Shown: positions 881 to 44,009 of the stretch, in pieces
Layout of the letters: each line of letters starts with the position of its first letter
Numbering within the stretch: position 1 is the stretch's first letter
From: Escherichia phage M01
Sequence record: OR061069
Length of the DNA stretch: 45,294 nucleotides
Direction: 5' to 3' (one strand)
Program-made: the position numbers and the translations under genes
The notes under the pieces: generated by a model
Database searches by the model: none
What the model was told of the DNA's origin: nothing
What the model saw: only the letters and a program-made list of their open reading frames with translations

Positions 881-1427
881 ATGAAGCTGAAACTCAAGCA
901 GCCATCGCCAGAGGTGGTGCAAGCGGCACATGAAGAAGCTGTTAGCGCAAACCGTCGCCGTAAACGACCGCGCGGCAAACAGAGCCTTTATCAGTCGTCC
1001 CGTAATTCCGCTGCGCTGTGGGACCCGGACTATTGCGACGCGTTAATCGAGTTCTTCGACCGACACGTCGTGGGAACTTGTGCCTACATCTAAGGGTGAC
1101 GAACGCCCACTGATTCAGGATAAACCGCCATCACTGGCCCGTTTCGCACTGCACATCGGCGTCACTACCCCAATTATTAAGCTGTGGCTGCGCGAGATTC
1201 CCGCATTTGCAGAAGCATACGAAACAGCGCAGGCGCTGGAAGAGGCGTACTTCACCGAGACAGGGGCCGCCGGCATCTCCGCTACGTTTGCCGCCGCTAA
1301 GCTGGGCCTCAGCAAAGAGAAACCGGTTGAATCCACCGAAGAAACAGCACCGACCGAGATTATTTTCGGTGTTGTGGAGCCTGTAGGTAAAATCGTTACC
1401 ACGAATATGGGCGAGGTAGAGGAATGA
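881..1427 (+). CDS. terminase small subunit (putative), split by a frameshift near 1047-1093
   Basis: RBS aagggga before ATG 881; sits directly upstream of terL; N-part frame 2, C-part frame 3. Confidence 0.5.
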
Positions 1428-2676
1428 GTATTCAGCTATCCGCGCCTCAGGCACTGTTCCTGAATTGCGATAACAAGTACAAAGCCTACGTCGGCGGCTT
1501 CGGAAGCGGCAAGACGTTTGTCGGCTGTCTCGACCTGCTTACGTTTATGCTCAAGCACCCCGGTACGCGCCTGGGCTACTTCGGCCCGACATACCCGGCC
1601 ATACGTGACATCTTCTACCCGACATTCGAGGAAGCGGCTAACCTGCTCGGCCTTGATGTGCTGGTTAAATCCGGCGACAAAGAAGTCGTTGTAACTCGCG
1701 GTAAGACGGTGCTCGGGACCGTTATCTGCCGTTCTATGGATAACCCCGGCTCGATAGTCGGCTTCAAAATCGCGGCTGCGGTCGTGGATGAGCTGGACGT
1801 ATTGAGCCGTGAGAAAGCCGAGCTGGCGTGGAACAAAATCGTAGCCCGCATGCGTCTGGTTATTCCCGGTGTAACTAACCACATCTCCGTCACCACGACG
1901 CCGGAAGGGTTTAAGTTCGTTTACGCCAAGTTCAAGGAGAACCCGACGCCGAGTTACTCAATGGTGCAGGCCTCCACCCACGAGAACGCGCAGATTCCTG
2001 CCGCCGGATTACATTAGCTCACTGACCGAGACTTACCCGGCGCAACTGATTAACGCGTACCTGAACGGCGAGTTCGTCAACCTGACATCCGGCAGCGTCT
2101 ATTACGCATACGACCGGCGCAAGCACCGCAGCAAAGAGACAATTCAACCGGGCGACACGCTGTACATCGGGCAGGACTTCAACGTTACGAAGAACGCCAG
2201 CGCCGTGTATGTACAGCGTAAAGATGGCTGGCACGCGGTTGCAGAGCTGAAGGGTCTGTTTGATACGCCGGACACCGTGCGCGTAATTACCGAGAAGTGG
2301 AAGTCACAAGGCCACCGCATCGTCGTTTACCCCGACGCTAGCGGCAAGAACCGTAAGACAAACTCGGCGTCAATCTCTGATATTGCATTACTCCAGCAGG
2401 CCGGGTTTCGATGTTCGCGCTAAATCAGCCAACCCACCGGTTAAAGACCGCGTTTTAGCCGTGAACACCGCGCTGGAAAAAGGTAAGCTGTGGGTTAATG
2501 ACCACTTATGTCCTGAGATAGCCAAGACGCTGGAACAGCAGGCATACGACGATAACGGAGAGCCGGCTAAAGACGGCGTCATTGACCATATGGCTGATGC
2601 TCTCGGCTATCCTGTAGTTTATGAGATGCCGGTGGTTAAACCAGTAATCAACATCCCGGTGACTTTCGCACTTTAA
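1424..2676 (+). CDS. terminase large subunit, split by frameshifts near 2000-2017 and 2400-2425
   Basis: Walker A GGFGSGKT; three consecutive frames give continuous terminase-like sequence. Confidence 0.8.
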
Positions 2677-2688
2677 GAGGATTATTAA

Positions 2689-4159
2689 ATGTTAACTATG
2701 AACGGTCAGAATCAGGGTGTTAAGACAAAACACCGGGAATGGCTGCATCACTTCGATAAATGGCAGAAGGTGCGCCACGCACTGGAGGGCGACCTTATCC
2801 GCTATCTGCGCAACGTCGGGAAGAACGAACCTGACCCCATCTACGCAGCCCAGCGCCAGGAAGAATACGAGAACGGCGCTATCTGCTACAACTTCACTAA
2901 ACGCACCCTGGCCGGGATGGTTGGTAGCGTCATGCGCAAAGACCCCGAACAGATTATCCCGCCTGAGCTTGAGTACCTGTTACGTAACGCCGACGGTTCG
3001 GGTGTAGGGCTGTGGCAGCACGCTCAGGATACTTTGATGGAGATTGACTCAGTAGGTCGTGGCGGGTTGCTGGTGGACGCCCCGGAGACAGCCGCGGCAA
3101 CGGCAGCCGAACAGAATGCGGGACTACTAAACCCGGTCATTGCATTCTATACCACAGAGAACATCATCAACTGGCGACTGACCCGCATCGGTTCAGTGAA
3201 CCGCGTGACGATGGTCGTGCTGCGCGAGGTGTGGGAGTACTCGGAGCCGGGCGCAGAGTTCGAAACCAAGTTCGGTGAGCAGTATCGCGTTCTCGATTTG
3301 ATTGACGGGCGCTACCGCCAGCGCATTTACCGCTTCGATGCCGAAGGTGGTGGCTAATGGTGAAGTAATCGAAATATTCCCGGAACTTGGCGAACAGTTA
3401 CGCGGCAAAATCCCGTTCACGTTCATTGGGGCAAGCAACAACGATGCGACCATCGACGATGCGCCTTTGCTGCCGTTAGCTGAGCTTAATATCGGACATT
3501 TCCGCAACAGCGCGGACAACGAGGAATCCAGCTTCGTTGTAGGGCAGCCCACTCTGTTCATCGCCCCTGGTGAAAACATGAGCATGGAACAGTGGAAAGA
3601 AGCCAACCCTCACGGCGTCCGCACGGGGTCGCGTTCAGGCCACAACATTGGTTACGGCGGCAATGCGTTTCTGGTTCAGGCAGGGGAGAACAACCTCGCC
3701 AAACAGAACATGCTGGATAAAGAGAATCAGGCGATTCAGATTGGTGCGCAGCTTATCACCCCGACGCAGCAAATCACCGCTGAATCGGCCCGTCTGCAAC
3801 GTGGTGCTGATACTTCAGTTATGGCAACAATCGCACGTAACGTAAGCATGGCGTACACTGATGCGCTGCGCTGGGTGGCTGCGATGCTTGGGCTGCGTGA
3901 AGGCACAGAGATTGAGTTCAAGCTGAATATGGAGTTCTTCCTGCAACCGATGACCGCTCAGGACCGTGCTCAGTGGATGGCGGATATTAACGCGGGTCTG
4001 TTACCGGCTACCGCTTATTATGCTGCGTTGCGCAAGGCAGGTGTAACTGACTGGACGGACGAGGACATTCAGAACGCTATTGAGGACGCACCTCTGCCGT
4101 TGGGTGCTGTTACTCAGGTGGCTGGAGAGATTCCGCAGTCGGCGCAACAACAGGAGTAA
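2689..4159 (+). CDS. portal protein, frameshift near 3300-3357
   Basis: about 490 aa across two frames; position after terL. Confidence 0.7.
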
Positions 4160-4165
4160 ATAGAA

Positions 4166-4195
4166 AGGCCCCTTAAGGGGCCTTATCTTTTCTTT
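4166..4195. terminator. bidirectional intrinsic terminator
   Basis: aaggcccc-ttaa-ggggcctt hairpin with flanking T-rich tract; between convergent genes. Confidence 0.6.
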
Positions 4196-4583: not shown

Positions 4584-5631
4584 ATGAGCTTACTTACATC
4601 CCTAATCAGCCACCAGATATGGCTACAACGCGCCGCATCCGGTGAAGTGAAAGACCTCGCACCGTTTATTAAGGAGATGCGGGACGAAATCAAACGGCAG
4701 GTGCTGTTATTCGGCGACGACGGGCGAAGCACTGCGCGACTGAATAAACTGTTACGCGACCTCGAAGAAGCACTGACAGGGCTTACAGGTGACTGGCAAA
4801 CAAAGCTGACAGAAGACCTTAAGGAACTGGCGGCGTATGAGGCGGAGTGGAACGTAAAGGCACTGACCGCCAACGTAGACGCGGAGTTTGTTACACCTAC
4901 CGCCGAACAGGTGTGGGCTGCTGCCGAGTTTCAACCGCTCTCATTGAGCGACAAGCCTGTTGATTTCTCTAAGCTGATGACCGGCTGGGGCGAAACAGAA
5001 GTCGAGCGCCTGGTAACCGGCGTTAAGATGGGCTTTGTACAAGGCCAAACCACACGGCAGATTGTTAAGAATGTCGTAGGCGCTGGCGGACTGGCCGACG
5101 TCTCTGAGCGTAACGCCGCTACCGTCATCCGCACCGCGCTGTCCCACGTGTCTAACGAAGCCCGTAACGAGACGTACCGCCAGAACGAAGACATCATCGA
5201 GAAGTACGAGTGGGTGTCGACGCTAGACAGCCGTACCAGTACGATTTGCAGAGCCAGAGACGGAATGACGTGGGAAATCGGTAAAGGGCCGATGCCGCCA
5301 GCCCATCCGAACTGCCGAAGTACGTGCACTGCACCTGTAATCAGTTCAGAGTTCGATTTCCTGGATAAAGGTGCAAAGCGAGCGGCTAAAGGTGCGGACG
5401 GCGGTACTCAGGTAAGCGCAGACACCACCTATTACGAGTTCCTGAAGCAACAACCGTCGTGGTTTCATCGATGAAGCGCTCGGCCCGGTGCGAGGCAAGA
5501 TTTTCCGTAACAGCGGTATATCACCGGAAGAGTTTCGCGTAATATCTGTAGATGGTTTCGGGAATCCGCTGACGCTTAAGCAGATGGCGGAACTCGATAA
5601 ACGTGTTGCTGATTATCTGAAAGGGGAATAA
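4584..5631 (+). CDS. head morphogenesis protein (SPP1 gp7 / Mu F-like), frameshift near 5460-5475
   Basis: RBS aggaggg before ATG 4584; C-terminal part continues in another frame to TAA 5629-5631. Confidence 0.65.
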
Positions 5632-6091
5632 TGATGGGCTTTTCAAAGTAACTGATGTACCGTCACGTCGCGTAGTCCAGTTTGCTCGTGTGTCAGGCTC
5701 CGGTGAGAACGTGGTGTCTATTGGGGATGAAAGTGTACTGGGTACGCCGGTAGATGATATGCCGTTTGCAGATAAAACCGGTATTGCGTTACCCGCGGCG
5801 GGCATGCTTTATGAGATTCCGTATCTGGCGGACGCTGGCGATGTGTATTTCTCTGTGCAACCGAAAGACGCTGAACTGGTTGACGGCAGCGCGACTATCA
5901 CTGTCGAAGTTAAGGCAGGTAAAGCGCCGTATACGCTGACCTGGTACAAAGACGGTAAGGAAGTAGTAAACGCCCCGGAAGAGGCTTTGTCTCTGACGGT
6001 TAACGCGGTGGGTGAATACTTCGTTAAAGTCACCGATGCCGATGGAGTAGAGGCGGTAAGTAAAGCGGCGAAGGTTACGAAGCCAGAATGA
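5631..6091 (+). CDS. Ig-like domain protein (possible capsid decoration); ATG 5631 frame broken at T4 run 5640-5643, alternative GTG start 5690
   Basis: Ig-like motif PYTLTWYKDG; frame 2 open from 5621 with no ATG. Confidence 0.5.
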
Positions 6092-7894: not shown

Positions 7895-8946
7895 ATGGCA
7901 ATTACCACTATCGGCGATATCGTAACTGGCAACATCCCGGTCCTGGCGTCTTACATGACCGAGGACCCGGTAGAAAAAACCGCGTTCTTCCAGTCTGGTA
8001 TTCTGACCCCGACTCCATACGCTGCCGAGATTGCCCGCGGCTCGTCCAACATCGCTAACATCCCTTTCTGGAAAGCGATTGATACTTCTATTGAGCCTAA
8101 CTACTCGAACGACGTATACCAGGACATCGCAACCCCGCGTAACGTGCAGACCGGCGAGATGATGGCGCGCGTTGCATACCTGAACGAAGGCTTCGGCCAG
8201 GCAGACCTGACTGTAGAACTGACCAGTCAGAATCCGCTGCAATCCGTAGCGTCCCGTCTGGATAACTTCTGGCAGCGCCAGGCGCAACGCCGTCTGATTG
8301 CTACCGCGCTCGGTCTGTACAACGACAACGTAGCCGCTGACCGATGAATACCATACGCAGAACGATATGGTTGTCGACGTGTCCTGCTTCTCTGGGCTTC
8401 GACGCTGGCGCATTCATCGACGCTACCCAGACTATGGGCGATGCGCTGATGGGCAACGGCGGTGAAGTGCTGGGCGCTATCGCGATGCACAGCTTCGTTT
8501 ATGCGCAGGCGCGTAAGCAGCAGCTTATCGACTTCATCAAAGATGCTGACAACGACACCCTGTTCGCCACCTACCAGGGCTACCGCGTGATTGTTGACGA
8601 CAGCATGACCGTAGTTGGCTCCGGCTCGAGCCGTAAGTTCATCTCCATCATCTTCGGCAACGGCGCTATCGGTTACGGTGAAGGTAATCCGTCCAACCCG
8701 CTGGAATACGAGCGCGAAGCATCTCGCGGTAACGGCGGCGGTGTCGAAACCCTGTGGACCCGTAAGACCTGGTTGCTGCACCCACTGGGCTACAGCTTCA
8801 CCAGTGCGGTAATCACCGGCAACGGCACCGAGACTGTAGCCCGCTCTGCTTCCTGGCAGGACCTGGCGAACGCCTCCAACTGGAACCGCGTTGTTGAACG
8901 TAAGCACGTACCGATTGCCTTCCTGGTAACTGGTGTTGGTGCTTAA
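7895..8946 (+). CDS. major capsid protein, frameshift near 8340
   Basis: about 350 aa across two frames; follows scaffold; terminator hairpin after. Confidence 0.65.
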
Positions 8947-9008: not shown

Positions 9009-9351
9009 ATGGCAGACGTATTGAAACGACGCATCACCGGCGTCTCCGCTGACGCCCCGGGTGCTAAGATTGATATGGCGACTATTTCTCCTGCGTCTTT
9101 CTCTACCCCACTTAACGCTACTACCTAGGTTGCCGCCGGACGAGACTATGACCCTGACCGTCGCAGTAACTGGCGGTCTGGAGCCATATTCCTATCAGTG
9201 GTACAAGAACAACAACGCCATCACAGGAGCAAACGCTGCCTCCTATGCTAAAGCGTCGACCACTACCGCCGATTCTGGCACGTATAAAGTGGTTGTTCAC
9301 GATGTGTATGGTAATATTATCTCCAGCAGCACTGTAGCAACTGTGTCTTAA
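9009..9351 (+). CDS. Ig-like domain protein; N-terminal 39-aa ORF (frame 3) joins Ig-domain frame near 9120, alternative ATG 9148
   Basis: motif PYSYQWYKNN paralogous to 5690-6091. Confidence 0.4.
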
Positions 9352-9388
9352 TACAAACGGCCCTTCGGGGCCGTAATAAGGAAAGGTC

Positions 9389-9568
9389 ATGGCAGATAAT
9401 TATGTAATCCGCGAAAAGTACACCCACGTTGATGTTGTTGACGGTCAGGTGATGCCTGTTCGCGGTGTTGTAGAAGCGGATGAACTGGTTGCAACCCAAC
9501 CGGACAACGAAGAAGCGCACAACAACGGCGGTGGTGCTAAGCGTCGTCGCCGTAAGTCAGAGGATTAG
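9389..9568 (+). CDS. hypothetical small basic protein (59 aa)
   Basis: ATG 9389 after hairpin 9359-9376; stop TAG 9566-9568. Confidence 0.3.
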   Translation: MADNYVIREKYTHVDVVDGQVMPVRGVVEADELVATQPDNEEAHNNGGGAKRRRRKSED

Positions 9569-9571
9569 GAC

Positions 9572-9724
9572 ATGAATATCATGCGGCGCTTGCTCTGTAC
9601 CCACAAATACCTAACGGTAAGAGTCGCGTATGGTGACGAGATAATTGGTAGAAATTACAAGCGATACTGCCAAGAGTGCACAAAATGCGGCGCAATCAGA
9701 TACGTGGGTGGTGATAAATGTTAA
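9572..9724 (+). CDS. hypothetical Cys-rich small protein (zinc-ribbon-like, 50 aa)
   Basis: C-x2-H and CxxCxxC spacing; overlaps next gene start. Confidence 0.3.
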   Translation: MNIMRRLLCTHKYLTVRVAYGDEIIGRNYKRYCQECTKCGAIRYVGGDKC

Positions 9725-10227
9725 TTGTAGAAACAGGCCAAATTATAGAGGGGGCCGATTCGTACATCTCATTAGCGGACGCCCGCGCGTTAGCGGCTAA
9801 TTATGGTCTGGAGTTACCCGCCGACGATACTGCCGCAGAAGTAGCCCTGCGCAATGGTGCTACTTATGTCGGGCTTGCAGAGCCGCAGATGTGCGGTCGT
9901 CGTGTATCCGCTGAACAGTCTCTGGCATACCCTCGTACCGGTGTTACGTTAAACGGATTCCCGGTAGCGGATAATGTTATCCCGAAACAGGTGATTCTTG
10001 CGCAGGTAATCGCCTCCGCCACATATGGCGCCGGCACGGAAGTGCGGGCCAACTCTGACGGTCGTTCCGTGCAGACTGAGCGTGTTGAGGGCGCAGTCAC
10101 AGTGACATACTTCAACAACGGCAGCAGTGGCGCTACGACCGCGATTACCGCCGCGGACGACGCCTTACGCCCGTTACTGTGTGGTGGTCTTAACAATGGC
10201 TTCTCATTTAATGTGTACCGGGGTTAA
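9718..10227 (+). CDS. virion structural protein (putative head-tail connector)
   Basis: position in late operon; 169 aa. Confidence 0.4.
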   Translation: MLIVETGQIIEGADSYISLADARALAANYGLELPADDTAAEVALRNGATYVGLAEPQMCGRRVSAEQSLAYPRTGVTLNGFPVADNVIPKQVILAQVIASATYGAGTEVRANSDGRSVQTERVEGAVTVTYFNNGSSGATTAITAADDALRPLLCGGLNNGFSFNVYRG

Positions 10228-10229
10228 AA

Positions 10230-10844
10230 ATGGCGAAGACTAAATCAGAGATGTTCACCCTCATCGGCGCGAATCTCCCCGATAACACCAACGGTGCCAT
10301 CACACCCGCGAAGCTACGCGAGGTAATGACGCAGATGGCGGACTCACCTATTTACGCCACTCCCGGTGTTAAAGAGGTTGAAGTTCTCCGCGCAGCGTCG
10401 ACCGTGATACAAGTGCCCACCGCAACGAACACGGCGTTGCAGTTAACTTTTGGAGCTGCACAGGGTAGCGCATCCGACCCTGTAATGATTAATGCCGCGG
10501 GGCTGGTTACGTTCAACACCGCGGGTAACTATGCCGTTCGCATCAAGTTACAGGCTGGGCGCACGGGGGCTAGCGGAACGTCTATCCTGCTATCACGCCT
10601 TCTTCTGAACGGCGCTCAGTACGGCTCGCCCGCCGCTACTAAACTGGTTAGCGCCGATACCACAATCCCGATTGAGTCTCGCGTCGTTATTAACCCGACC
10701 GCAGGCCAGACGTTTGCCGTTCAGATTATGCGGGATAGCGCCGGGAGTAACTTCGGCGGCGTATACCCGCAAGCGGCTACGGTAACTGCATGGGGCACAG
10801 CACCATCTGCGCTACTGGTTATTTCGAGACTGGAGGCTGCGTAA
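10230..10844 (+). CDS. virion structural protein (putative)
   Basis: 204 aa; position in late operon. Confidence 0.4.
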   Translation: MAKTKSEMFTLIGANLPDNTNGAITPAKLREVMTQMADSPIYATPGVKEVEVLRAASTVIQVPTATNTALQLTFGAAQGSASDPVMINAAGLVTFNTAGNYAVRIKLQAGRTGASGTSILLSRLLLNGAQYGSPAATKLVSADTTIPIESRVVINPTAGQTFAVQIMRDSAGSNFGGVYPQAATVTAWGTAPSALLVISRLEAA

Positions 10845-10975
10845 TGCGAAAAATAATTAATATGTGGATTAACTCTGATTTTTTGTGGAAGTACGAATTT
10901 TTGGTATCAGTGTTTGCGCTGGTATCAACAACAGCTCTAATTATATTTTTAGCGGTTTGCGGGGAGTCAACATGA
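10844..10975 (+). CDS. small hydrophobic membrane protein (43 aa), AT-rich insert
   Basis: ATGA overlaps on both sides; single TM segment; local AT-richness. Confidence 0.35.
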   Translation: MRKIINMWINSDFLWKYEFLVSVFALVSTTALIIFLAVCGEST

Positions 10976-11331
10976 GCACCGCTTTCAGCAAACGTATGCA
11001 GGGCGTGGGTACACGCCTGCTAACCAAATTCGGCAGCACAGTATCTCTGGTTCGCGCTGGCTCGAAAGTGTGGGATGAAGTTCTCGGTGAATGCGTCTGG
11101 TCCGCCGACGAAGTGTTGCCTTTGAAGGCCGTTCCGGTTCCGGTAAACGCGGGGCTGGTTAACGGTGCGACGATTCAGGCTGACGACATGATTGTTAAAG
11201 CGGATTACAGCGTCGTTCCGAAGATGGAAGACAAGGTGCAATTCGGCGGCGAGCAATGGTCTGTCGTAGCTATCGAGAAGAAGATGGTTAACGATGATGT
11301 CGTGGCCTACTTTATCCAGGTGAGAAAATGA
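10972..11331 (+). CDS. head-tail joining protein (putative)
   Basis: 119 aa; position. Confidence 0.4.
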   Translation: MSTAFSKRMQGVGTRLLTKFGSTVSLVRAGSKVWDEVLGECVWSADEVLPLKAVPVPVNAGLVNGATIQADDMIVKADYSVVPKMEDKVQFGGEQWSVVAIEKKMVNDDVVAYFIQVRK

Positions 11332-11828
11332 GTTTCGCGCTTGATGTCTCTAAGTTCGTCGAAAAGGCGAAGAAGAATCCCGAGAAGGTGATGCGCCAGG
11401 TGTCTATCAAGCTGTTTTCCGCTATCATAAAGGCGAGTCCGGTAGATACTGGTCGCTTTCGTATGAACTGGATGGCCTCTGGCGGTACTCCTGCTTCCGG
11501 TACAAGTCGCGGTACTGACCCTAGCGGAGCGAACGCAATAAGTGCTATGGTTTCTACCGTGTCGGGTTTACCCGACTGGAGCGAGTTCACCCTGACAAAT
11601 AACCTGCCGTATGCGGAAGTTATAGAGTTCGGAGGTTACGCTACCGGCTTCCACGGCCCTAAGCGCCCTTCTAACTTAGGCTCTAAATTTGTTGGCCCAT
11701 TGAGGCCGAAAGCGCCCAGCAGAACAACCACAGACGGATATTCCCTTCAGGCTCCGCAAGGTGTTGTCCGGGTTAACGTTCAGCGATTCAATAAACTGCT
11801 CGAAGAAGAAGCGAGGAAGTATAAATAA
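11328..11828 (+). CDS. HK97 gp10-like tail component
   Basis: motif PVDTGRFRMNW. Confidence 0.55.
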   Translation: MSFALDVSKFVEKAKKNPEKVMRQVSIKLFSAIIKASPVDTGRFRMNWMASGGTPASGTSRGTDPSGANAISAMVSTVSGLPDWSEFTLTNNLPYAEVIEFGGYATGFHGPKRPSNLGSKFVGPLRPKAPSRTTTDGYSLQAPQGVVRVNVQRFNKLLEEEARKYK

Positions 11829-12241
11829 TGGGCTACTTTGAGGACTTAACCAAAGCGTTTGATGTGCCGCTGGTAGCCTTCGGAACAACCAACGGCATCA
11901 AGGTGGCGCTTGAAAACATCGACGCGCCGACGTCAACCGATACACCGTATCTGGCGAGTTACATGTTGCTGGCAGATACGGAACAGGCTGACTTATTCTT
12001 CACCGAGCAACGTTCTGGTATTTATCAGGTCGACATTAACTACGCATCGGTGAAAGGTAGCGCGCCAATCAATAAAATGGCAGACTTACTTAACACGGCG
12101 TTTAAAGCAGGTAAGTCATTTTCACGTAACGACATCTGCGCCGAGGTTCAATCGGTTAGCCTGGGGCCACTGATTGTAGAAAACGGATGGGCCAAAAGAC
12201 CATTGTCAATTAACTTTATCGCATTCACCAAGAGGCTGTGA
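11828..12241 (+). CDS. tail completion / terminator protein (putative)
   Basis: position immediately before major tail gene. Confidence 0.4.
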   Translation: MGYFEDLTKAFDVPLVAFGTTNGIKVALENIDAPTSTDTPYLASYMLLADTEQADLFFTEQRSGIYQVDINYASVKGSAPINKMADLLNTAFKAGKSFSRNDICAEVQSVSLGPLIVENGWAKRPLSINFIAFTKRL

Positions 12242-12243
12242 AT

Positions 12244-13410
12244 ATGGCTACAACTCCTTTTAAGGGCGCGAATACCGCGCAATTCTATGTGGCGGAAGTC
12301 ACCCCGGGCGTAACACCGACTAACCCGGTCTGGTCACCGTTGCGTAACACTGGCGGTGTTCCTGCTATCACCCGCGACACGCTGACCTCCAACGAACTGG
12401 ACGGCAGCCGTGAAACTACATCCATCCGCACCGGTAACAAACAGGTTAGCGGTGAATACGCGATCGAGCTTAGCTCGAAAAGCCAGGATGACTGGCTGGC
12501 TGGTGCTTTAGGCTCTACGTGGCAATCCGGTGTTTCCCTGTCCAGTCTGTCGATTACCGTCGCACCGGCAGGCAAGACGTTCACACGCGCTACCGGCAGC
12601 TTTATCACTGACGGAGTTGGGGTAGGCGACCTGATTGCGTTTACCGATTTAACAGGCGATAACGCAAAACCATTTATTGTTACTGCAGTAACGGCTACGG
12701 TTGTTACTGGTGCTGGCATCCAACACACCCTGACCACCGAGACAAAAACTAGTAAGGCTAAAACCGGCGACACGCTGGAAACCGGTAACACGTGTAAGAC
12801 GTTCTCTATCCTTACCTGGTACAAAGGCCAGTGCGGCGGTACTAACGCGTACACGTTAACCAAAGGCGTGGAAGTTTCTGGTTTTACCATCGAACAGGCT
12901 GTTAACGCGATGGTAACTGGCAGCTTCCCATTCATCGGTCGCAGTCAGGAGATTCTCACCACGCCGCCGACCGGTTCCAACTTCTCATCTGTTACTTTTG
13001 GTGATGAGCCGTTTTCTTCGGTTGACGTTTCCGTGTTCGATGGTTCTACGCCGTTGCGATGCGACAGTCTGACTATCACCAACGATAACAGCGCGTCGGC
13101 GCAGTTCGAACTTGGTAACACTAACGTAGCGTTTGTTGAGCGTAGCCGCGCGGCTAACACTTTCTCCATCTCCGGCAAGCTGTACGACATGGCGATGATT
13201 CAGAAGTTTATCAACGAACAGCAGGTAGAGATTAACTCTATTCTGGCGGGGGTAAACGGGGCTATGTCTTTCAGTTTGAAACGCGCAGAGCTTACGGCGG
13301 TCACACCAGAGATTGGCGGACCCGAGTCAATCACTCAGTCCATTGAAGGCCAGGCTACCGGCAACCAGTACCAGTCGTCTATTGTCATCCAGCGTATCAC
13401 CTACCCATAA
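12244..13410 (+). CDS. major tail protein
   Basis: 388 aa, Thr/Gly-rich; sits before the chaperone and tape measure genes. Confidence 0.55.
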   Translation: MATTPFKGANTAQFYVAEVTPGVTPTNPVWSPLRNTGGVPAITRDTLTSNELDGSRETTSIRTGNKQVSGEYAIELSSKSQDDWLAGALGSTWQSGVSLSSLSITVAPAGKTFTRATGSFITDGVGVGDLIAFTDLTGDNAKPFIVTAVTATVVTGAGIQHTLTTETKTSKAKTGDTLETGNTCKTFSILTWYKGQCGGTNAYTLTKGVEVSGFTIEQAVNAMVTGSFPFIGRSQEILTTPPTGSNFSSVTFGDEPFSSVDVSVFDGSTPLRCDSLTITNDNSASAQFELGNTNVAFVERSRAANTFSISGKLYDMAMIQKFINEQQVEINSILAGVNGAMSFSLKRAELTAVTPEIGGPESITQSIEGQATGNQYQSSIVIQRITYP

Positions 13411-13412
13411 AA

Positions 13413-13440
13413 CTAAGGCCCCTGACGGGGCCTTTTTCTT
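13413..13440. terminator. bidirectional intrinsic terminator
   Basis: aaggcccc-tgac-ggggcctt then TTTTT; overlaps stop of minus-strand kinase gene. Confidence 0.6.
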
Positions 13441-15659: not shown

Positions 15660-15673
15660 TTAAATAAAGGCGA

Positions 15674-16000: not shown

Positions 16001-16026
16001 AATTATTTCCTCAGTAAGTTACAGGT

Positions 16027-20641: not shown

Positions 20642-20644
20642 TTT

Positions 20645-28704: not shown

Positions 28705-28734
28705 TTCTCAATTCCTTATATTGTTGGTGTAGGA

Positions 28735-29424: not shown

Positions 29425-31628
29425 AACGTTTTAACTCCTGCACCTTCCGCTACAAGAGGGAACCCCTCGGCCCACTCCGGCAATTCGCACATCAATTTTT
29501 CCAGTTCAGCCACCGTGTACTCAGGTAAGTCCGGAGTTTCACAGACTAATCTCATCGTGGACACGAAAGCACGATCGGGTAGCCGTCCGCCCTCAACATT
29601 CAATCAGTCGCATATAGCCAGCAAATCACGGCACAGCGCCTGAATGCAATGTTTTCGCAGAGCTTTGCCGCCGTGGGTGTACAGGGTAGTCCCCACTGGC
29701 GGGTTAACTGGTTTTCACCCTGATACTTGATTCGCACATTCGTGTTTACCCGTCCGTCTTCGTCTGTTTCCTTTGTCACACTAACGCCGATTCCCGGATA
29801 CGAGAGGATGCGACCCGACGGCAACTCCATACACAACCACCAACCAGGAACCTTCCTGCCGGATGAATCAAATTCTACAGTACGCCATATGCGGATAGCA
29901 CGCTACGCCATTCTTGCGCAGATGCGCCCCGCCGCAAAATTCACGACCAGGATTACGAACAGCAGCTAAAATTCCGTCTTTAAGGTCGCGCCAGAAAGCT
30001 ACTGTTTCAGGGTGAGACTCCCGCCACATACGCTTGATAGCGTCGCAGGTACGCCACACTTTCTTATCAAGAATATACGATGGTCGGTCATCCTTTTCAC
30101 CGGGATGTGGCGGTCGCTTTGCTTCCTGAATACGCGCCCACTCATACCCACGTGCGGTAGCAGCCCAGATGTGGTCGGGGAAAGTCCCGTCCATTGTTTT
30201 TGCCATCTCAATAAGGTCAAGACCTAAGTTTTTAGCAAACGTAACGAACGCTCCGACGCCCCCTCATAGCCGAGGCCAAGCTCGCAAGCCTTGCCTATCT
30301 GTCTGATTTCCTTGAAGTTTTTCTTAATATCATCTGGGTCCATGCCAAACATCTTACCCGCGGTTACATAGTAAATATCAACCCGGCGCGGAACGTATCA
30401 AACGCGGTTTCTCCCCAGCCAGCCACGCAAGCCCGCGACCTTCAACGTTAGAGTAGTCAGCAACAACAAACTTATGCCCTTCTTCCGGTATGATGCAGCT
30501 ACGCACGGTAGATGCCGTCAGTTTTGCCACATCGAAACGGCGATGCGCTCGGCCCTTAAGTAACGCTGAAATGCCTTTATCCAGTTCATCATCGTGATAG
30601 TACCCGCGTGCGAGATTCTGCGGCTGGAAGCCTTTACCCGCCCATCGCAGAGTACGTTTTGCCCCGCCATACTGTAAACAACCGCGACGGCGGTCGTCCG
30701 ACGAGCGGCCTAACAGCAGCGGGTTATATTTCGTTGATGCGGTGGACGCGGCCCCGAGGCGCATTTCGATAATCGTGCGGGCGTCGTCAGGTAAATCATC
30801 GTCCGCCAGCAGGTCATGAAGCGTTGACTTCTGCGCGTTGTGGATGCGGTGCGCGGGGGCGAGTTCACGCAGAATCGGCAGAAAGTCTTTACCGGTAAGC
30901 GAGCCGCCGTATTTGCGTTGGGCTTCTTCCTGTAACTGTGCCTTGTGCTTCTCCACGGCTTCAATCGCGGCTTCCGCCAGTGCAACGTCAACCTTAAACC
31001 CACGGTCATTGATTAACTGGTCAAGTTCCAGTACACGGTCCTCGAACTCGGAGTTACCCCAACGCGGCAGCTTATGAAAGACTTCACGCATCGCGGTGAT
31101 GTCGCTCACGGCGTACTTGATGAACAGCGCCCACTCGTCCGGGTGTGTTTCGGCGGTGTAACGGCGGATTTTGTAGTTCTTCGGTGTAGGTTTGGAGAAA
31201 CGCTGAATCAGCGCCTTGCCGCGTTTATCTTTCGCGTTGTCCGCGGATACGCACAAGCACTTCGCACAATGCATCGAGCGACCCCGGCAGCGCGTGACGA
31301 AACGCCCAAATCATCGTATCAATGGTGTTGCTTACCGGAATATCAAAGCCCCAGCAGTGCTTCATGATGAGCCTGTCGAACATTGAGCCGTTGTGCCACA
31401 CCATCTTAATGCGGCTGTTCGGCTTAACCAGGCGGCGTAAGTGCGCGGTGCAAATCACCCGGCATGTCGCTGCTGTCGGTGCAATCCCATACCCTGCACA
31501 GGCTCGTCGTCAAAAGCATAGGTACAGATTAGCACTTCGGTAGTTGGGTGTTCGGCATAAGCGTAGGAGCCGACTTTCTTTAAATCGGCTTCGGAGAATG
31601 TTTCAAAGTCCAGGTATAAGTAGCTCAT
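29418..31628 (-). CDS. family A DNA polymerase with 3-prime-5-prime exonuclease domain, at least five frameshifts
   Basis: Exo motifs LDFETFS and WHNGSMFD; polymerase motifs DYSNVEGR and RQIGKACELGLGYEGG spread over several frames. Confidence 0.75.
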
Positions 31629-32435: not shown

Positions 32436-32654
32436 TCAATATACTTGTTTGGCCATTTCATGTTGTTTATGAAACGTAAGCGCCTGTGTCTTCCACGATT
32501 TGTCGCTCAGGATGGCTTCGATGTCGCGTGTTCGCATTAGGCATATCGTAAGGCACGCTATGATAAATGTTGGTATCGTTAGCGGCGACATAAGAACCCA
32601 GAAAATAATACACGCTACAAAACCGCCAATTACTCTGAACATTTTACGAATCAT
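32436..32654 (-). CDS. small membrane protein
   Basis: two hydrophobic segments; ATGA overlap with exonuclease stop. Confidence 0.4.
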   Translation of the reverse strand: MIRKMFRVIGGFVACIIFWVLMSPLTIPTFIIACLTICLMRTRDIEAILSDKSWKTQALTFHKQHEMAKQVY

Positions 32655-33898
32655 TCCAAATCCTCCTCTGTTACCTGATTCCACTCAGGACGTTTGTCGT
32701 CCGCCGTTGCGACGCATGGCGCGCCTGGTTTACGGGTAATGAAGTCTTTCAGTTCTTCTTCCGGTATTACTTTAACCGCTTCGGTCGGCGTCATGAGCAC
32801 TTCTTTGGTCAGCTTGCCGCCGTATTTCTCGGCCACTTTCTCTGCGTCTTTCCACGCGCGATTACCCGGCCGACCCTCAACCAGCTTGTACCCCGGTACT
32901 TTCTTGCCAGAATGCAACGCGGCGGCCATAGCTTTCTCGACCTTGTCGATGTGCTGGCGCAACAACGGCAACTTCTCATACTCAGCCACGAGTTGCTCCG
33001 GTGTAAGTTCCAGTGCGAAATCGTCCTCCAGTTCTTCCGCCAGCGCCGCGTTAACCGTCTTTGTACGCGCTGCGCACTGTTCTGAGAACCGACACCACTG
33101 ACAGCCGTCGACAGACGGCCTGAAGTCCGACGCTTTCAGGTTCTTCTTGCCGCGGAAATACGCATCTAAGCGCTAACAGTGCACGTTTCTGCGCGAACTT
33201 AGCGAACAGTTCCAGACCTTCAACCGAGATGTCCCACTCCGACGCACCGCCAGCGTACGGCTGGAAGATGACCAGACGGACAACTGTGATGTTATAACGT
33301 CTCTTGAGTCGGCGATAAACACCGAGAGCGTAAAGCATAAGCTGCTTGTTTTCTTTCGCTTCGACACGATGCCGTCCTGTTTTCAGGTCGCCGATAATGA
33401 GCATGTGATCGTCGGTGTTCGCCAGCTCCTGAACGGCAACAAGGTCAGCGGTTCCGAACGTCTCGACACCTTCATAGCCCAGGATGCAATACCTCAGTAA
33501 GATTGACTCGCATTTCCAGCTTGGCGTAAGTCGCTACGTCGATAATCGCTTTGCAGTAGTCTGTGTACTTGCGCACCTGCTCAATCATATCCGCCGTAAT
33601 CAGTACCGCGCCCTTCATCGGGCTGATTAGCGCCTTAATCTGGCCTTTACCTTCATCAAGCACATAAGCACCGACTTCGCGCTCTAACGGCAGCGCAGTA
33701 CCGCGTGATATAGTGCGTTGAGATGTACCTCAGCTATTGTATGCATAGCTGTGCCTAACACGGCAGCTTTGCCGGACGTGTTAGGAATATCTTTTTCACA
33801 GGCCAGTGATGCACTGCACAGCTCAGCCACTTTTTAGCACCTGACGGCGATAGTAATGCGTGCACATCGTTATTGCCGCCGCGTTCTTTTAGAATCAT
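32651..33898 (-). CDS. PD-(D/E)xK exonuclease (Cas4/RecB-like) with C-terminal extension, multiple frameshifts
   Basis: motifs LSPSGAKKW, DLKTGR, Cys cluster CQWCRFSEQC across frames. Confidence 0.55.
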
Positions 33899-34865: not shown

Positions 34866-35356
34866 TTATTCTTCTTCGAAATACTTGTTCTTGATTGCCG
34901 TCAGGCGCTCCAGGTATTCAGCCAGGTCTTCGTCTTTAATCGCGGCAATCTTCATCTTCTTACCGGTGAACTCCTCCAGCAGTTCATCGGAATCATCGCA
35001 CGCAGCATCACTAGGACCTTCATTAATCGCATCGTCGATGGCCTGAATCTGGTCACGAAGAGACTGGTAATCGACTTCTTCTTTCACTTCTTCCGGTTCT
35101 GGCGTTGGTTCCTCTACTTTAGCTTTACGCTGCTTGCGTTTCGGCTTTCTTCTTCTGCTGGTTGAGTGTCGACGGTGTCTTCACCTTCTACCGGGATTTC
35201 TTTTGTTGTTTTTCGCAACAGTAGGTCTCGATTGTTGCAGTTTCGCGCACCACTGCGACGGATAGCTTCGGCAGTTCGGTCGGCGCACTGTTCGCTGCAA
35301 TAATTTCGTGCGCAACTACGAAACGTTCCAGTAATACTAAGAATTGTCTCTAACAT
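34866..35356 (-). CDS. hypothetical protein with Cys-rich N-terminus and acidic C-terminus, frameshift near 35100
   Basis: two ORFs in adjacent frames. Confidence 0.35.
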
Positions 35357-35879: not shown

Positions 35880-38122
35880 CTATTCCAAATCCTCCTCTGT
35901 AACCACCAGCATTTCATTTGGTTCGTATATTGTCTTCGGTCTTAATCTGTCACCCATCTTTTCCGGTATCCGGTATGTGCCTGGCATAACTTCACCGTTA
36001 ACATCGCACCCGAGCATCAACTCCCCGTCTTTCAGCATCTTCTCGAGATGGTGGTTGGTGATGGCGTGGTCGCCCGAGTTCGCTACTATCTGCCGTTGGG
36101 TAAAACCTCGTCCGGTGTCGTTAGACTGTTGCAGGTCTTCCAGCGCGGCGAGTATGGATTCCTTACGTCCTCCATCCTTCCCACGTTTTACGGCATTCTT
36201 TACGTTTTCTTTACCTTCCTTTGTTATGCCTTCTTCCCGCTCTTTCTCCTCGTCAGTTTTGAACGGTTCGAAGCCCCACGGCATCAGCACAAGCGCCTTG
36301 TGAGGCTCAGGCAGGTCGAGGTTTACGATTGTGCCATATTCCTCGGTGCTACCCAGGAACTCAACAGCACGGTATTCTTTCGGCGGCGGGGCTTCACGGA
36401 ACTGTACGGACTCCAGAACCATACCGACAGTTTTCTGTTGAGGCCCGTGCTTAAATTTAGAGTGGTATACATTTATTTGACGGTCGGTTGCACGTTCGAT
36501 TGTCAGTTCCACGTCGACACCTGCATACAGTGCCCCGCTGCCACGGGCTTTCTTTCCCCCTTCGGCGTATGATGGACAACACCTACCGCGGCTTTAGTCG
36601 CGTCGCGTACTTCTTTCAGGATGGCGATAACTTTACCCATGCCGATTGCCGTTGATGAACTGTTCTCGTCAAACTTATCAATCGTCAGGGCCAGCGTCTG
36701 GTTGAGGGTGTCGAACGCGACCATACCGATTGGCTCGTCGCCAGCAGTTTCGCGCATTAACTTAATCAGGTTTTTCAGTTTGCGCGAGACTTCGCCCATA
36801 TCAATGACATGTATGTAATCTTTACCTTCCTCGCCGTATTTAGCCGCGAGCGCGTCAATACGTGTGCGTGTAGCAGCGCCACCCTCACCGTCGATATAGA
36901 AGTGATGACAACGCTGGGTATCAGCCCCCGCAAACCGGTATCCGGCGGCGCTGAGATACATCATCCCCAGAGTATAAAACGATTTGTACGTGCCAGATTC
37001 CCCGACAATATCCCATATGCAATCCGACGGCATGTACCCTTCAACGACGAAATCAGCCTTTACCGGTTCTGGTAACTCGTCCTCCTCTGAGTCCTCGTCG
37101 TCTTCCAGGTCGTCGAGGCTGCATGAAACGGATTCACGCACACCCCAGCCGATTGCCTCAGCGACTTCACTGAACGGTAGCCCGGTCGCATCACACGCAT
37201 ACTTCCACACCTCTTTCGGTGACATGCCTTCGGTCGCCGTAATGTCGGTGTCGTGAATCATTGTTACGTTAGGCGCTTCGTACCCTTCACGCGGGAAACA
37301 CAGCAGGAAGTCGTCCGGGCGCGGCGTCGGGTCGCTGTAGTTTTCTGCGTGTTCTGGCGTAGCTGGCATCTTTAGGCCACGCGGCGTCATGATGCCACCG
37401 TACTCGAACGCCAGTGCCTCAAACGCATCTGTAAACGCGGTGCGCAGTTCTTCCGGTATCTGGTAGTCAGATGCGCTGCTGATGTCAACGGCTGGGACGC
37501 CTTCCAGTAACTCATCAGGGTCAATCAGGTCGTTGCGGCGCGACCAGATAACAGTAGAGCCAACTGGCGGCAGGTACATCGGCTGCGACAGAGTGAACCC
37601 GCTGCGGTCCGCGCCCATGCCTTTGAAGAAGTGCTCCAGTAATCCATGGCGAACACGGATGATGTCGCCACCTTCAACCGGGCGGGCCAGCGGCATGACG
37701 ACGCGAAAGCGCGGCGACTCGTCGGTATGTGATGCCGTGGTGTAGAGACACATCGCCTGGCGGCTGCGCTTAACCAGGCGCACCGCTTCCTGATACTCTT
37801 CCGGTGTTGCGCTGTCGAAGTCCAGGTACGCCAGCGAAGATTTGCTTACAGACGCATCACAGCGATAGAAGAAGCCTTTACGCGCTTGCTTAAAGTCGCC
37901 TGTTTCCGGGTCTTTTACGGTGCTGTGTGTGGAGTCGCACGCGGCGGTGATATAACCGGGTGCGGTCTTCGGGTTAATTCCGTCACGGACAGCATCAAGC
38001 GGCTGGATTAAATCTTTCAGGTCGCCCAGCGTTGCCGTGTGTGTGGTTCTGACGTTTATATCCTTTTTCTCCGCCCGCGCGTTGCGACGAGACCACGAGT
38101 AGGATAAAATTACATCGGACAT
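35880..38122 (-). CDS. primase-polymerase / RecA-fold helicase fusion, frameshift near 36510
   Basis: Walker A GESGTYKS, Walker B MVAFDTL, HHTPK motif; N-terminal AEP-like AYLDFD. Confidence 0.7.
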
Positions 38123-38180: not shown

Positions 38181-38413
38181 TTATTCCAGGTCTTCTAAAG
38201 TAGCGGTCATTCCGCGAACTTCGGCAACAGCACTATATTTCCCGCCAACATTTTTCACGACACCAGATTTAACCAGTACCTTCAACGACCCTTCAATAAT
38301 GGCGGAACTATAGTACCTAAAATAACTACGGCGCAAGTCCATAACGCTGCACGACCCTTTTTACAGGTTAATGAAACGACTGCCGTAAATACGCGGGACT
38401 GGAACTCGGTCAT
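38181..38413 (-). CDS. hypothetical protein, probable frameshift; boundaries uncertain
   Basis: good RBS ggagaa; ATGA overlap with upstream HTH gene. Confidence 0.2.
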
Positions 38414-38955: not shown

Positions 38956-39042
38956 ACCAAGTAATAAGAATAAAGGCACAACCCTACCTGAAGAATCACA
39001 ACGGCAACGTAACCATTTTCAATGAATCTCTTGCACACCCCA

Positions 39043-39330: not shown

Positions 39331-39516
39331 ATGTTTAAGAAAGGTCAGTTGGTTAGGGATAAATTTAGCGGCGATTTATTCACTGTAATAGAGTCGAAGC
39401 TAATGTGGTTCGGTTTTGTTGAGGTTAATAGCGTAGCTGGGTTTGGTAAAGGACTGCTCCGTAAATGCGATTTAACACTCATCGGCAACAATTTTAAATT
39501 CAAAGGGGCGAAGTGA
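39331..39516 (+). CDS. hypothetical protein (61 aa)
   Basis: RBS aaagggg; AT-rich. Confidence 0.35.
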   Translation: MFKKGQLVRDKFSGDLFTVIESKLMWFGFVEVNSVAGFGKGLLRKCDLTLIGNNFKFKGAK

Positions 39517-39840
39517 TGGAAGAATTAATTTGCGTTGAATCAAGTCAAATGTGAGCGTGAGTTTGAAGTCAGGTAACAAGTATTCGTACGGCGGTATATT
39601 ACAACGACCTGATTACGATTATGTTATTGGTGAAGACAGTGATGCGAATGGGTTTAGTTGACGCAGTTCGGAGACTGATGACCGTTCGGTATATTTGATG
39701 GTGGACTGAGAGCCTCATTCACAACGGCATCGAATCATGATGCTCGTGCCGACGACTCTGAGGGAGGTTGCCGTGAATAATTACCCGTTTATTTTAATTG
39801 TCAGCGCCGTTTATGCGGTGCACGCGTTGTGGGGGTTGGT

Positions 39841-41754: not shown

Positions 41755-41954
41755 CCAGCATCTTATTTATATGGGTGTTGCACGCGGGCCAGATGCACCT
41801 CGCGGCATCAGAAACGTTTTACTCGATGGAGGCGTGCCAGTCAGCGGCACGCGCCGCTGAGAACGCGCACTTCCTGTTTCAGGGCGACAAGCCCAACGAT
41901 TCAGAGGTACGCGCTATCTGCTCACCTAAGCGACTTGGAAAACAGGAGAAGTGA
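41751..41954 (+). CDS. hypothetical protein (67 aa)
   Basis: ORF track. Confidence 0.35.
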   Translation: MTSILFIWVLHAGQMHLAASETFYSMEACQSAARAAENAHFLFQGDKPNDSEVRAICSPKRLGKQEK

Positions 41955-42471
41955 TTGTGGTACAGAGATATTCGTAAGTATGGGTCTGATGAAGCATGGT
42001 CATTGACCGCCACGGGAAGTGGGTTAAGTTTGAGGACTACCAGTAAGCTTGACCTGAAGCTGTACGCGAAGCTGGAGCGCAAGCTGCTGAACTACAAAGA
42101 CCAGTATCGCACGCGCCTTATGTCGAAAGTTGCGCGAAGAAATGGGTCAGTTACGACATGTGTCAGGGATGGAGTGATGTCTCTCGCAACTGACATCCTG
42201 AAACGAAGCGGCCTTGCGCCGCTGTCGCCGAGAGCAAACACCCGAATATACAAGCGCTGCCGTAATGCGCTGTACCATGAGATACAGGCACAGGCGCAAA
42301 GCTGTCCGCGCCTGCGGATTCCAGAACGGGAAGGCCGTGAATCTCGGTGAGTTTAAAACACAGGAACGCGCAGCTATCGCTAATCGGCTATTTAATTACT
42401 GGAAATCGCTGGGGTACGATGATATTCCAACGAAACCGCAGAGACGACAATACATCTGGAGACACAAATGA
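41955..42471 (+). CDS. putative endonuclease with AP2-like C-terminal domain, frameshifted
   Basis: GKAVNLGEFKTQERAAIA resembles AP2 domain of HNH endonucleases. Confidence 0.35.
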
Positions 42472-42909
42472 CTACTATCGCATTTGATGGAAAGACAATG
42501 GCCTGTGATACACGCGTTGTGTGCGGAAGTAACTGCTACAACACTGACACAAAGATATACGAGAATGATACTTATGTTATAGGTGTAGCGGGTGATGCTG
42601 GAGTTGGCACTATGCTTATCGACTGCCCGTATATCCTCCAGGCCAGACCATTACGAATTCGATTTCGAAGCCCTGGTGTTCGTGAAAGACACAGAAAAGG
42701 TGTACAAAGTCGCGTTCTATAAATCATGGGATTGTGCACTTAGTTCAGTTATTCCGGTTGCTGATGTGTACGCCGCCGTGGGGTCTGGCTCGCCATATGC
42801 ATTAGCCGCTATGGAGTGCGAATATTCGGCGCATGGCGGCGTAGCCGTTGCATCGAAGTTCGACACTAACACCGGCGGCAAGATTATTACCAAACAACTA
42901 TTAGGATAA
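42468..42909 (+). CDS. Ntn-hydrolase (HslV / proteasome beta-like) protein, frameshift near 42640-42660
   Basis: N-terminal MTTIAFDG, then VIGVAGDAG and GSGSPYALAAME. Confidence 0.45.
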
Positions 42910-42968
42910 TTCCTACCCGTGGTATCCTCCAGTTACTGCATACTTAATACGCACCTGGAGGATTCATC

Positions 42969-43278
42969 TTGGATAAATTTACTGAAACAGTGACGGGGTG
43001 GCTTCTGGCTGCCGCACTAGCTGGTGGGGTAATCGGACTAAGACAACATAAGTCCATTATTTCTGGCCCTATCGATGGCTTCTGCTTTATTGCAACCGGC
43101 TTCACCTGCGCAGTATTTGGCGCGCCTCTCGCAGCTCAATGGTTTGGAATCACGGGCGACCGTGAAATCGCCGGGCCTGGGCTTCATTATCGCTATTCTC
43201 TGGATGCCTATCTATTCCCGCCTCTCTGGCATCGTCGCCGGAGAATACATCGCACGTCGAGGAGGCCCGGATGAATGA
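42969..43278 (+). CDS. holin (three TM segments), TTG start, frameshift near 43170
   Basis: RBS ggagga; hydrophobic segments in two frames; directly upstream of endolysin. Confidence 0.5.
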
Positions 43279-43543
43279 GCTATTCTGGTTCGGCGGTATG
43301 CTGGCAATCGGAGGCACATCGCTGTTTAATGTGTATCACCCCAGCGTGAACGACGGGCTGTTTGGTCGGGTGCTCTATATCCTGACCGCTATCGTCTGCG
43401 CCGCCGGATGTATCCACCTGTTACAGGGCAGCATGTCACCAACGTTGCCGGAGACATTAATCACATTAGTTGCGCTGCGTCAGATTCGTCAGGCGTGGCT
43501 GTCATACGGAGGATATAAGCGTGTCTCGAAACATTTCAGATAA
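43271..43543 (+). CDS. membrane protein (second holin / antiholin candidate)
   Basis: two hydrophobic segments. Confidence 0.4.
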   Translation: MNELFWFGGMLAIGGTSLFNVYHPSVNDGLFGRVLYILTAIVCAAGCIHLLQGSMSPTLPETLITLVALRQIRQAWLSYGGYKRVSKHFR

Positions 43544-44009
43544 CGGACTGCATTTCACCGCCGCGTTTGAGGGATTTCCGTGGAACTGCGTATCGTGCTA
43601 CGCCTGAACGAGAAGTACCTGACTATAGGCTACGGTCACTACGGACCAGACGTAACACCAGGTAAGACCATCACACCAGGACAGGGCTTGCTGTTACTGA
43701 ATCGCGATATGGCTAAGGCTGTAGCTGCTGTTGACGCAGCAGCACACCATTCACTGACACAGGCACAGTTCGATGCGGTGTGTGACCTGGTGTATAACGC
43801 CGGTGCTGGCGTGATTGCCGTCTACTACGGGCACAGGCAAGGCACTGCGCTCAGGAGATATTGCAACACTGCGTGCCAAGCTGGCGCTGTTCATCAACCA
43901 GAACGGCAAGCCGTTACTCGGCCTGCGTCGCCGTACAGCCGGACGTCTGGCGCTGTTCGACGGTAAACCGTGGCAAGAGGCTGAGGCGATTGGGAGGGCT
44001 GTTAAATGA
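43521..44009 (+). CDS. endolysin (GH24 lysozyme-like), frameshifts near 43570 and 43830
   Basis: LTIGYGHYG and DAVCDLVYNAGAG motifs across frames. Confidence 0.65.

Follow-up and report, generated by a model that had tools for sequence, protein, structure and literature searches.

Split genes in the genome record of Escherichia phage M01 as probable consensus errors of a low-coverage Nanopore assembly

Introduction

Insertion and deletion (indel) errors in long-read-only Nanopore assemblies are a known class of artefact that leads to fragmentation of predicted proteins, and the consensus errors of R9 chemistry are mainly homopolymer deletions. Related pictures are known from two biological systems. 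In the programmed -1 ribosomal frameshift by which siphoviruses make tail assembly chaperones (lambda gpG/gpGT type), one protein is made from two overlapping frames, and in cryptic prophages that undergo decay, multiple essential genes are interrupted. Here, we analyse sequence record OR061069 of Escherichia phage M01 (M phage), a stretch of 45,294 nucleotides (nt) that is referred to as the window throughout, where many essential genes between positions 881 and 44009 are split across reading frames. A previous reading of the window, made from the sequence alone, had listed a number of these genes, and attributed the splits to indel sequencing errors rather than to a decayed prophage.

The window resembles the Nanopore-indel artefact in having many one-base indels, open reading frames (ORFs) split into adjacent frames, a low-coverage unpolished assembly, and homopolymer deletions that recur in a sister assembly. 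It differs from the textbook case in that the indels are mostly homopolymer-neutral insertions, that they occur in bursts, and that a block of about 15 kilobases (kb) is nearly spared. As for the gpG/gpGT frameshift, each protein at a window break is spread over two frames, but the chaperone frameshift is a single site conserved across relatives, whereas the roughly 100 breaks in the window are conserved in no relative. Prophage decay shares the interrupted essential genes with the window, but brings relaxed selection, large deletions, insertion-sequence insertions and host flanks, none of which is present here. The split genes are a data-quality problem, and no biological feature is involved. 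The frameshifts are, very probably, consensus errors of a MinION-only, low-coverage, unpolished Flye assembly, and the genes of the real phage are intact.

Results

Split genes and protein continuity

The window is the complete, 45,294-base-pair (bp) genome of a Kagunavirus (Guernseyvirinae), i.e., of a virulent E. coli siphovirus. Megablast searches with both halves of the window returned full-length collinearity with lytic Kagunavirus siphoviruses of E. coli. The nucleotide identity to the window is 97.2% for CR01 (OR061068), 92.9% for UTEC10 (PP291582), and about 90% for Bas73 (PQ850603); membership in the genus follows from the 92.9% identity to UTEC10, and from about 90% identity to other classified members over 76-83% of the query stretch. 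Gene order and content in CR01, UTEC10, fFiEco03 (MT711524) and Bas73 are as in the window, and every gene that is broken in the window is intact in UTEC10, fFiEco03 and Bas73, while CR01 has frame jumps of its own. The gene names in the sequence-only reading agree with Pfam scans and with the curated fFiEco03 annotation.

When the proteins of UTEC10 and Bas73, which are intact, were compared with the window by tblastn, successive segments of one protein fell in differing window frames for all genes named in that reading. A frameshift-aware protein-to-DNA aligner that permits frame jumps was written for the analysis. At least 27 window genes carry about 70 frame jumps, and the recovered proteins are mostly 95-100% identical to their intact homologues. 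Both approaches bear out the claim that each of the listed genes is split across frames with continuous conserved sequence. As a control, Bas73 proteins were aligned on UTEC10 and the reverse, which gave one or two jumps in 31-32 genes, all of them located at the C-termini of two small proteins. With the filters of the control applied, the window shows 37 jumps in 19 of 33 genes. Similarly, UTEC10 and Bas73 differ by 33 DNA gaps with a length not divisible by three, compared with 95-149 between the window and its relatives, and the excess persists despite a divergence of only 2% from CR01. The frame breaks in the window are far above chance.

Repair of the sequence gave a consistent result. 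Undoing 91 events, taken from an earlier, three-reference version of the indel catalogue described below, increased the number of reference proteins that are encoded full-length in a single frame from 69 to 99 of 125. Protein similarity runs unbroken across the breaks, and removal of indels restores full-length ORFs. The genes that are still broken after repair are those in bursts, and those that lack a close reference.

The broken genes are listed below, where fractions refer to the match with the intact homologue in the frameshift-aware alignment.

881-1427, plus strand: terS (small terminase); extra base near 1062-1066; 175/181 against UTEC10, with one +1 jump at about 1064
1424-2676, plus strand: terL (large terminase); one base inserted at about 1990 and another at about 2401; 414/416, two +1 jumps
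2689-4159, plus strand: portal; extra base at about 3351; 478/495, one +1 jump
4584-5631, plus strand: head morphogenesis (Mu F-like); one base inserted at about 5463-5469; 329/347, one jump
5631-6091, plus strand: Hoc/fibritin-like decoration; T5 to T4 deletion at 5640-5643, in codon 4; stop after six codons
6610-7108, plus strand: Rz/Rz1 spanins; single bases inserted at 6688, 6708 and 6987; 124/128, three jumps
7895-8946, plus strand: major capsid protein; G inserted at 8339 and C at about 8383; 342/349, two +1 jumps
9009-9351, plus strand: Ig-like capsid decoration protein; one base inserted at about 9140
14478-15608, minus strand: metallophosphoesterase; three extra bases within 14735-14768; 371/376, three +1 jumps
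19248-20641, plus strand: distal tail protein; T inserted at 19254, G in 19744-19746 and A at 19756; one T lost from 20119-20125
24084-25920, plus strand: tailspike; extra bases at about 24407 and 24432, missing C at 25723; 598/610 against the UTEC10 protein of 611 amino acids (aa), three jumps
26086-26600, minus strand: Toprim-like protein, called primase in the sequence-only reading; extra bases at about 26269-26275 and 26355; 164/171, two jumps
26600-28023, minus strand: SNF2-type DNA helicase; single bases inserted at 26891 and 27013, and a compensated pair at 27786/27804; 464/474, two jumps
28023-28516, minus strand: HNH homing endonuclease (HNH_3 + AP2); C5 to C4 at 28404-28407; 162/164 against fFiEco03, one -1 jump
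28719-29018, minus strand: VRR-NUC nuclease; one T lost from the T run 28984-28986; 87/93, one or two jumps
29417-31628, minus strand: DNA polymerase I; at least 14 jumps; 710/730 against the fFiEco03 polymerase with jumps allowed
32654-33898, minus strand: DUF2800/PD-(D/E)XK exonuclease; four or five events (about 33170, 33478, 33707, 33814-33822); 401/412, four jumps
34869-35356, minus strand: small conserved hypothetical protein; three jumps; missing-base burst at 35208-35284 that includes 20 nt
35883-38122, minus strand: replicative helicase-primase; missing base at about 36558 (CC[A]CCC); 733/745, one -1 jump
38184-38413, minus strand: small replication-associated protein; one T lost from the T5 run 38358-38362
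39516-39777, plus strand: small hypothetical protein, within a burst of about 20 extra bases (39534-39681)
41957-42468, plus strand: two small hypothetical proteins (41957-42174 and 42177-42468); about 17 bases inserted at 41973-42154, and a single one at about 42290
42468-42909, plus strand: HslV/proteasome-like protease; extra base at about 42648
42969-43278, plus strand: holin (first of two); one base inserted at about 43173; 100/102, one jump
43521-44009, plus strand: endolysin; extra bases at about 43572, 43605 and 43821; 158/161, three +1 jumps

The two splits reported previously for terL are both confirmed, and the insertions that cause them do not occur in CR01, UTEC10 or Bas73. The middle third of the gene (2018-2382) carries no feature in the RAST table. 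For DNA polymerase I, five or more breaks had been noted, and the number now stands at 14 or above; RAST divides this gene into six coding sequences (CDS). The flanks of the two insertions in the major capsid gene are identical in three relatives. In the head morphogenesis gene, three further extra bases at 5318-5322 leave the frame unchanged on balance, and in the metallophosphoesterase gene the three insertions likewise add a net +3 within 30 nt, yet a stop is present inside the shifted stretch. A second event near 28737 is possible in the VRR-NUC gene.

Several broken genes were absent from the list in the sequence-only reading, namely those for the Hoc/fibritin-like protein, the Ig-like decoration protein, the metallophosphoesterase and the HslV-like protease, as well as the small genes at 34869-35356, 38184-38413, 39516-39777, 41957-42174 and 42177-42468. 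The observation made in that reading is correct, and its extent was understated.

Types and distribution of indels

For the catalogue of indels, the window was aligned to CR01, UTEC10, Bas73 and fFiEco03, and every gap was left-normalised. To be called window-only, an event required support from CR01 and at least one other reference, or from at least two others where CR01 was unaligned. In this way, 85 window-only events were obtained, to which can be added 11 for which CR01 is the sole covering reference, i.e., about 96 in total. The 85 events comprise 66 one-base insertions, 12 one-base deletions, five two-base insertions, and a few that are longer.

The sequence-only reading had also proposed that several breaks coincide with homopolymers, which holds for a minority class of deletions, while about 70% of the events are single-base insertions that are neutral in this respect. 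Out of the 66 one-base insertions, 50 lie outside homopolymers in the sense that the flanking bases differ on both sides, and in the subset with clean flanks the proportion is 16/27, compared with an expectation of 56% for non-homopolymer placement of random insertions. An enrichment in homopolymers is not observed for the events overall, but only for deletions, where the runs affected are T4 at 5640, T7 at 20119, C4 at 28404, C5 at 30258 and T5 at 38358. Slippage in homopolymers accounts for a minority, roughly 15%, of the events.

Three homopolymers had been singled out as sites of breaks. A true T5 to T4 deletion has produced the T4 run at 5640-5643, with one more T in all three references used, but this run belongs to the Hoc/fibritin-like gene that starts at 5631, and not to the head morphogenesis gene. 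A break does exist at the CCCC run at 19747-19750, but the C run itself is unchanged, and the break is caused by the extra G in 19744-19746 and the extra A at 19756. At the T7 run at 20119-20125, a missing base was confirmed by comparison with the intact phage Ivi, which reads GTA TTT TTT AAG; the window has the CR01 sequence at this site, and the codon frame suggests that a T8 run would have been shortened to T7. The distal tail gene shows three jumps in total, one of which equals +2 nt, and four single-base events are therefore required.

Clustering of the events is strong (index of dispersion 4.4, p = 8e-21). At the C-terminus of the polymerase, the window has 13-14 bases more within 29420-30000 than any relative found, and bases are missing in bursts at 35208-35284 and 36760-36788. 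Divergent natural alleles were considered as a source of the bursts at 29420-30000, 39500-39800 and 41940-42200, but a search of the phage collection returned none closer than CR01. Because of this, and because all relatives listed are shorter by 9-25 nt, a divergent allele does not by itself account for the bursts.

A block of about 15 kb is, by contrast with the remainder, nearly free from errors:

9355-24405, unstranded: nearly error-free block with connector, tail tube, PNK, tail chaperones, tape measure, minor tail proteins and the 852-aa tail protein

The exceptions within the block are the clusters at 14.74-14.77 kb and 19.25-19.76 kb, and the T7 deletion at 20119-20125 shared with CR01, and the event-free stretches measure 5.4, 4.5 and 4.7 kb. 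Outside the block, the average is about three errors per kb. The indel density per kb correlates with the substitution divergence from CR01 (Spearman 0.43, p = 0.003). Together, the clean block and this correlation hint at uneven depth, or at CR-like reads in the consensus. Errors by substitution play no prominent part: substitutions private to the window amount to 0.7%, and 85 of 118 are at third codon positions.

Two gene pairs in the block have putative or annotated frameshift products in fFiEco03. The tail chaperone pair (16165-16581 and 16587-16940) is intact in the window and 100% identical to Bas73, and has a frameshift product in the fFiEco03 annotation. The neck/tail pair (10972-11331 and 11328-11828), for which a putative frameshift product is given in fFiEco03, is also intact in the window, and both pairs are to be kept apart from the artefactual breaks.

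Source assembly and viability of the phage

M phage (M01, OR061069) was described as a circular Flye assembly of 45,294 bp with a guanine-plus-cytosine content of 50.9% and a maximum coverage of 21x (Sci Rep 2023;13:23040, PMC10754912). The reads were obtained by MinION with the SQK-LSK109 kit and basecalled with Guppy, and the assembly was subjected to four Flye polishing rounds without short reads. CR and M were demultiplexed from MinION data, and for M only "the contig with maximum coverage" was retained. OR061069 was deposited as a partial genome, and M phage was reported to be 97% similar to CR phage (PMC10754912). The window agrees with this description in length, guanine-plus-cytosine content and similarity to CR01, and the first 103 of the 104 RAST features in Table S5 of that paper correspond to open ORFs in the window. 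The sequence was thus produced on an error-prone platform (R9 MinION), at low depth (21x or less), with Flye and no further polishing.

The phage is functional despite the broken essential genes. M phage was triple plaque-purified, reaches 1e13 plaque-forming units (PFU) per ml, and has a latent period lasting 20 min, with a burst size of 150 (PMC10754912). Since the phage forms plaques with a burst of 150, its terminase, portal, capsid, polymerase and lysis genes cannot be missing.

In the same paper, ORFs of 852, 110 and 437 aa were proposed as candidate receptor-binding proteins (PMC10754912), and exactly these ORFs are present in the window. The 852-aa tail protein was among the machine-learning receptor predictions of the paper. 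The 110-aa and 437-aa proteins, which were regarded as separate, are pieces of one tailspike (24084-25920).

CR01, the sister Nanopore assembly

CR01 originates from the same laboratory and pipeline as M01, and was sequenced by Nanopore at 248x (PMC10754912). With the frameshift-aware aligner, CR01 shows 15 frame jumps in 11 genes, nearly all of them -1. Homopolymer or short-run deletions at 20119, 28404-28407, 28984, 30258 and 38358 are identical in the window and CR01. Several deletions thus recur at the same sites in CR01, and they are therefore systematic basecalling undercalls. The jumps in CR01 hit terL, portal, capsid and tailspike, among others, and many are located in runs of G4-G5, A6 or T5; examples in CR01 coordinates are 1792, 3756, 9094, 19315, 40821, 41387 and 42640.

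PQ474795.1, a second record on the same scaffold

The record PQ474795.1 (vB_Eco_AMO_3701M, Kazakhstan) is also 45,294 bp long, and aligns to the window without a gap although 3,204 positions (7%) differ. Its start base, which is arbitrary on a circular contig, is that of the window, and the coordinates of its 103 CDS are as in the RAST table of M phage. For comparison, 37 gaps separate two real genomes that diverge by 9.5%, whereas PQ474795.1 and the window differ by zero. The two records share identical blocks as long as 2.4 kb, several of them in the most variable modules.

The differences between the records have the character of natural variation. Synonymous changes make up 76%, and the differences fall on third positions of the true frame even where this frame is unannotated (28/28 in terL 2018-2382). 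At four-fold sites, 67-73% match alleles of the relatives. Synthetic, annotation-aware mutation was considered as a source of the differences, and is excluded by the fit to the true frame and by the natural alleles. The simplest reading is that PQ474795.1 represents a consensus of another phage's reads placed on the M01 scaffold, with substitutions only. Because of the shared start, length and CDS coordinates, and the zero indels at 7% substitutions, PQ474795.1 is not an independent confirmation of the window.

There are 49 stops located away from reference protein ends, mostly created by frameshifts, and none of these differs between the window and PQ474795.1, where about 10.5 changes would be expected on the basis of local divergence. 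A single-nucleotide polymorphism filter acting near indels was tried as the cause, but no depletion of differences is seen near indels. True stop codons show four changes between the two records, all stop-to-stop. A literature search for PQ474795 or AMO_3701M gave no match.

Discussion

Based on the indels that are absent from close relatives, which agree among themselves (85 + 11 events), the protein continuity, the repair test, the MinION-only assembly at 21x or less, and the viability of the phage, the frame breaks are best explained as consensus errors, as the sequence-only reading had suggested; its corollary that all gene boundaries are approximate is supported along with it. Two classes of error would contribute. 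The larger class would consist of some 70-80 single-base, rarely two-base, insertions that are specific to this assembly, scattered or in bursts, and neutral with respect to homopolymers. The smaller class would comprise single-base deletions, many of them in homopolymer runs, and several also present in CR01. The pipeline step behind the excess of insertions may be one affected by low local read depth, or by mixed or cross-contaminated reads.

Two points weigh against consensus errors. A profile that is dominated by insertions and neutral to homopolymers is unlike the consensus errors expected from R9. PQ474795.1 carries exactly the indels of the window, and would at face value pass for an independent confirmation, but was evidently built on this scaffold.

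If the indels were instead real mutations, the phage would be defective or decaying, or a prophage with pseudogenes. Many essential genes are indeed interrupted, and the identical interruptions in PQ474795.1 could be taken as a second observation of them, were that record independent, which it is not. The plaque-forming capacity and the burst size of 150 speak against a defective phage. Selection does not appear relaxed, because the protein identity is undiminished (95-100%) on either side of the breaks, and the private substitutions are biased toward third positions. Furthermore, the circular contig is collinear with lytic Kagunavirus throughout, and host flanks, as would be expected from integration in a host chromosome, are absent. 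Decay of this kind is highly improbable. Still less credible, to the point of being negligible, is pervasive recoding, in which dozens of sites would undergo programmed ribosomal frameshifting or bypassing. The continuation of a conserved protein in the adjacent frame at every break is what recoding would produce, and the substitutions between the window and PQ474795.1 respect the third positions of the continuous frame also in unannotated segments, as noted above for terL. However, neither the sites nor the shifts are conserved in CR01, UTEC10, Bas73 or fFiEco03, where the same proteins are encoded in one frame. No slippery motif is present at the breaks, the contexts of the insertions are heterogeneous (close to the random expectation), and in some places 13-20 extra bases come together in a burst. 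As for the pair of tail chaperone genes, it is intact and distinct from the breaks.

Within the explanation by consensus errors, a variant to be considered is a mixed read set, derived from two related phages in the lysate or from barcode cross-talk with the co-sequenced CR, that resulted in a chimeric consensus with bases of both haplotypes. The retention of only the maximum-coverage contig and the demultiplexing of CR and M from MinION data (PMC10754912) are compatible with such mixing, as are the correlation between indel density and divergence from CR01, the lack of errors in stretches identical to CR01, and the burst at 29545-29690, where CR01-like and UTEC10-like bases alternate. On the other hand, in a scan of 3-5 nt around isolated indels, substitution differences relative to CR01 are only weakly enriched over local controls, at 22% compared with 16% (within 3 nt) and 35% compared with 22%. 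Many insertions moreover have flanks that are identical across relatives, and the phage was triple plaque-purified. We regard mixed reads as a possible but somewhat doubtful contribution. A few breaks may, alternatively, be genuine, in particular those shared with CR01 in the T tract at 20119-20125 (distal tail) and the C/G tract at 28404-28407 (HNH). These two breaks are identical in two separately assembled phages, and the HNH homing endonuclease, as a selfish gene, is dispensable; degradation of HNH genes is common. However, both assemblies are of R9 chemistry from one pipeline, and every shared break is a loss of one base, in four of five cases in a run of 4-7 identical bases. Loss of one base in a homopolymer run is a classic systematic Nanopore error. 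For the distal tail protein, which is essential, the viability of both phages adds to the difficulty. A genuine subset is therefore unlikely; if it existed, a length-variable tract could switch a tail-tip protein on and off, or the homing endonuclease could be dead.

With consensus errors as the cause of the split genes, gene calls, protein family counts and analyses of receptor-binding proteins that are based on this record are unreliable, and the CR01 record is likewise unreliable for gene calls. The reappearance of the error scaffold in PQ474795.1, a record from another country, means that agreement between database entries is no proof of correctness. Screens for recoding or pseudogenised phages will pick up such records as false positives.

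Additional sequence differences

Two events stand out by their length. A small gene on the minus strand carries 10 extra nt at its 5' end (39017-39026), and at 35260, 20 nt are missing compared with CR01. Both exceed the typical size of an error, and could represent real variation. The event at 39017 was considered as a 10-nt tandem duplication, but proved to be a plain extra stretch of 10 nt.

The HNH gene at 28023-28516 (HNH_3 + AP2) is positioned between the helicase gene and the next small gene. In UTEC10 and Bas73, the same slot is occupied by a DNA methyltransferase, while the HNH allele is common, at 94-99%, to fFiEco03 and several Salmonella Jersey-like phages. The difference between HNH and methyltransferase at this position is a module swap.

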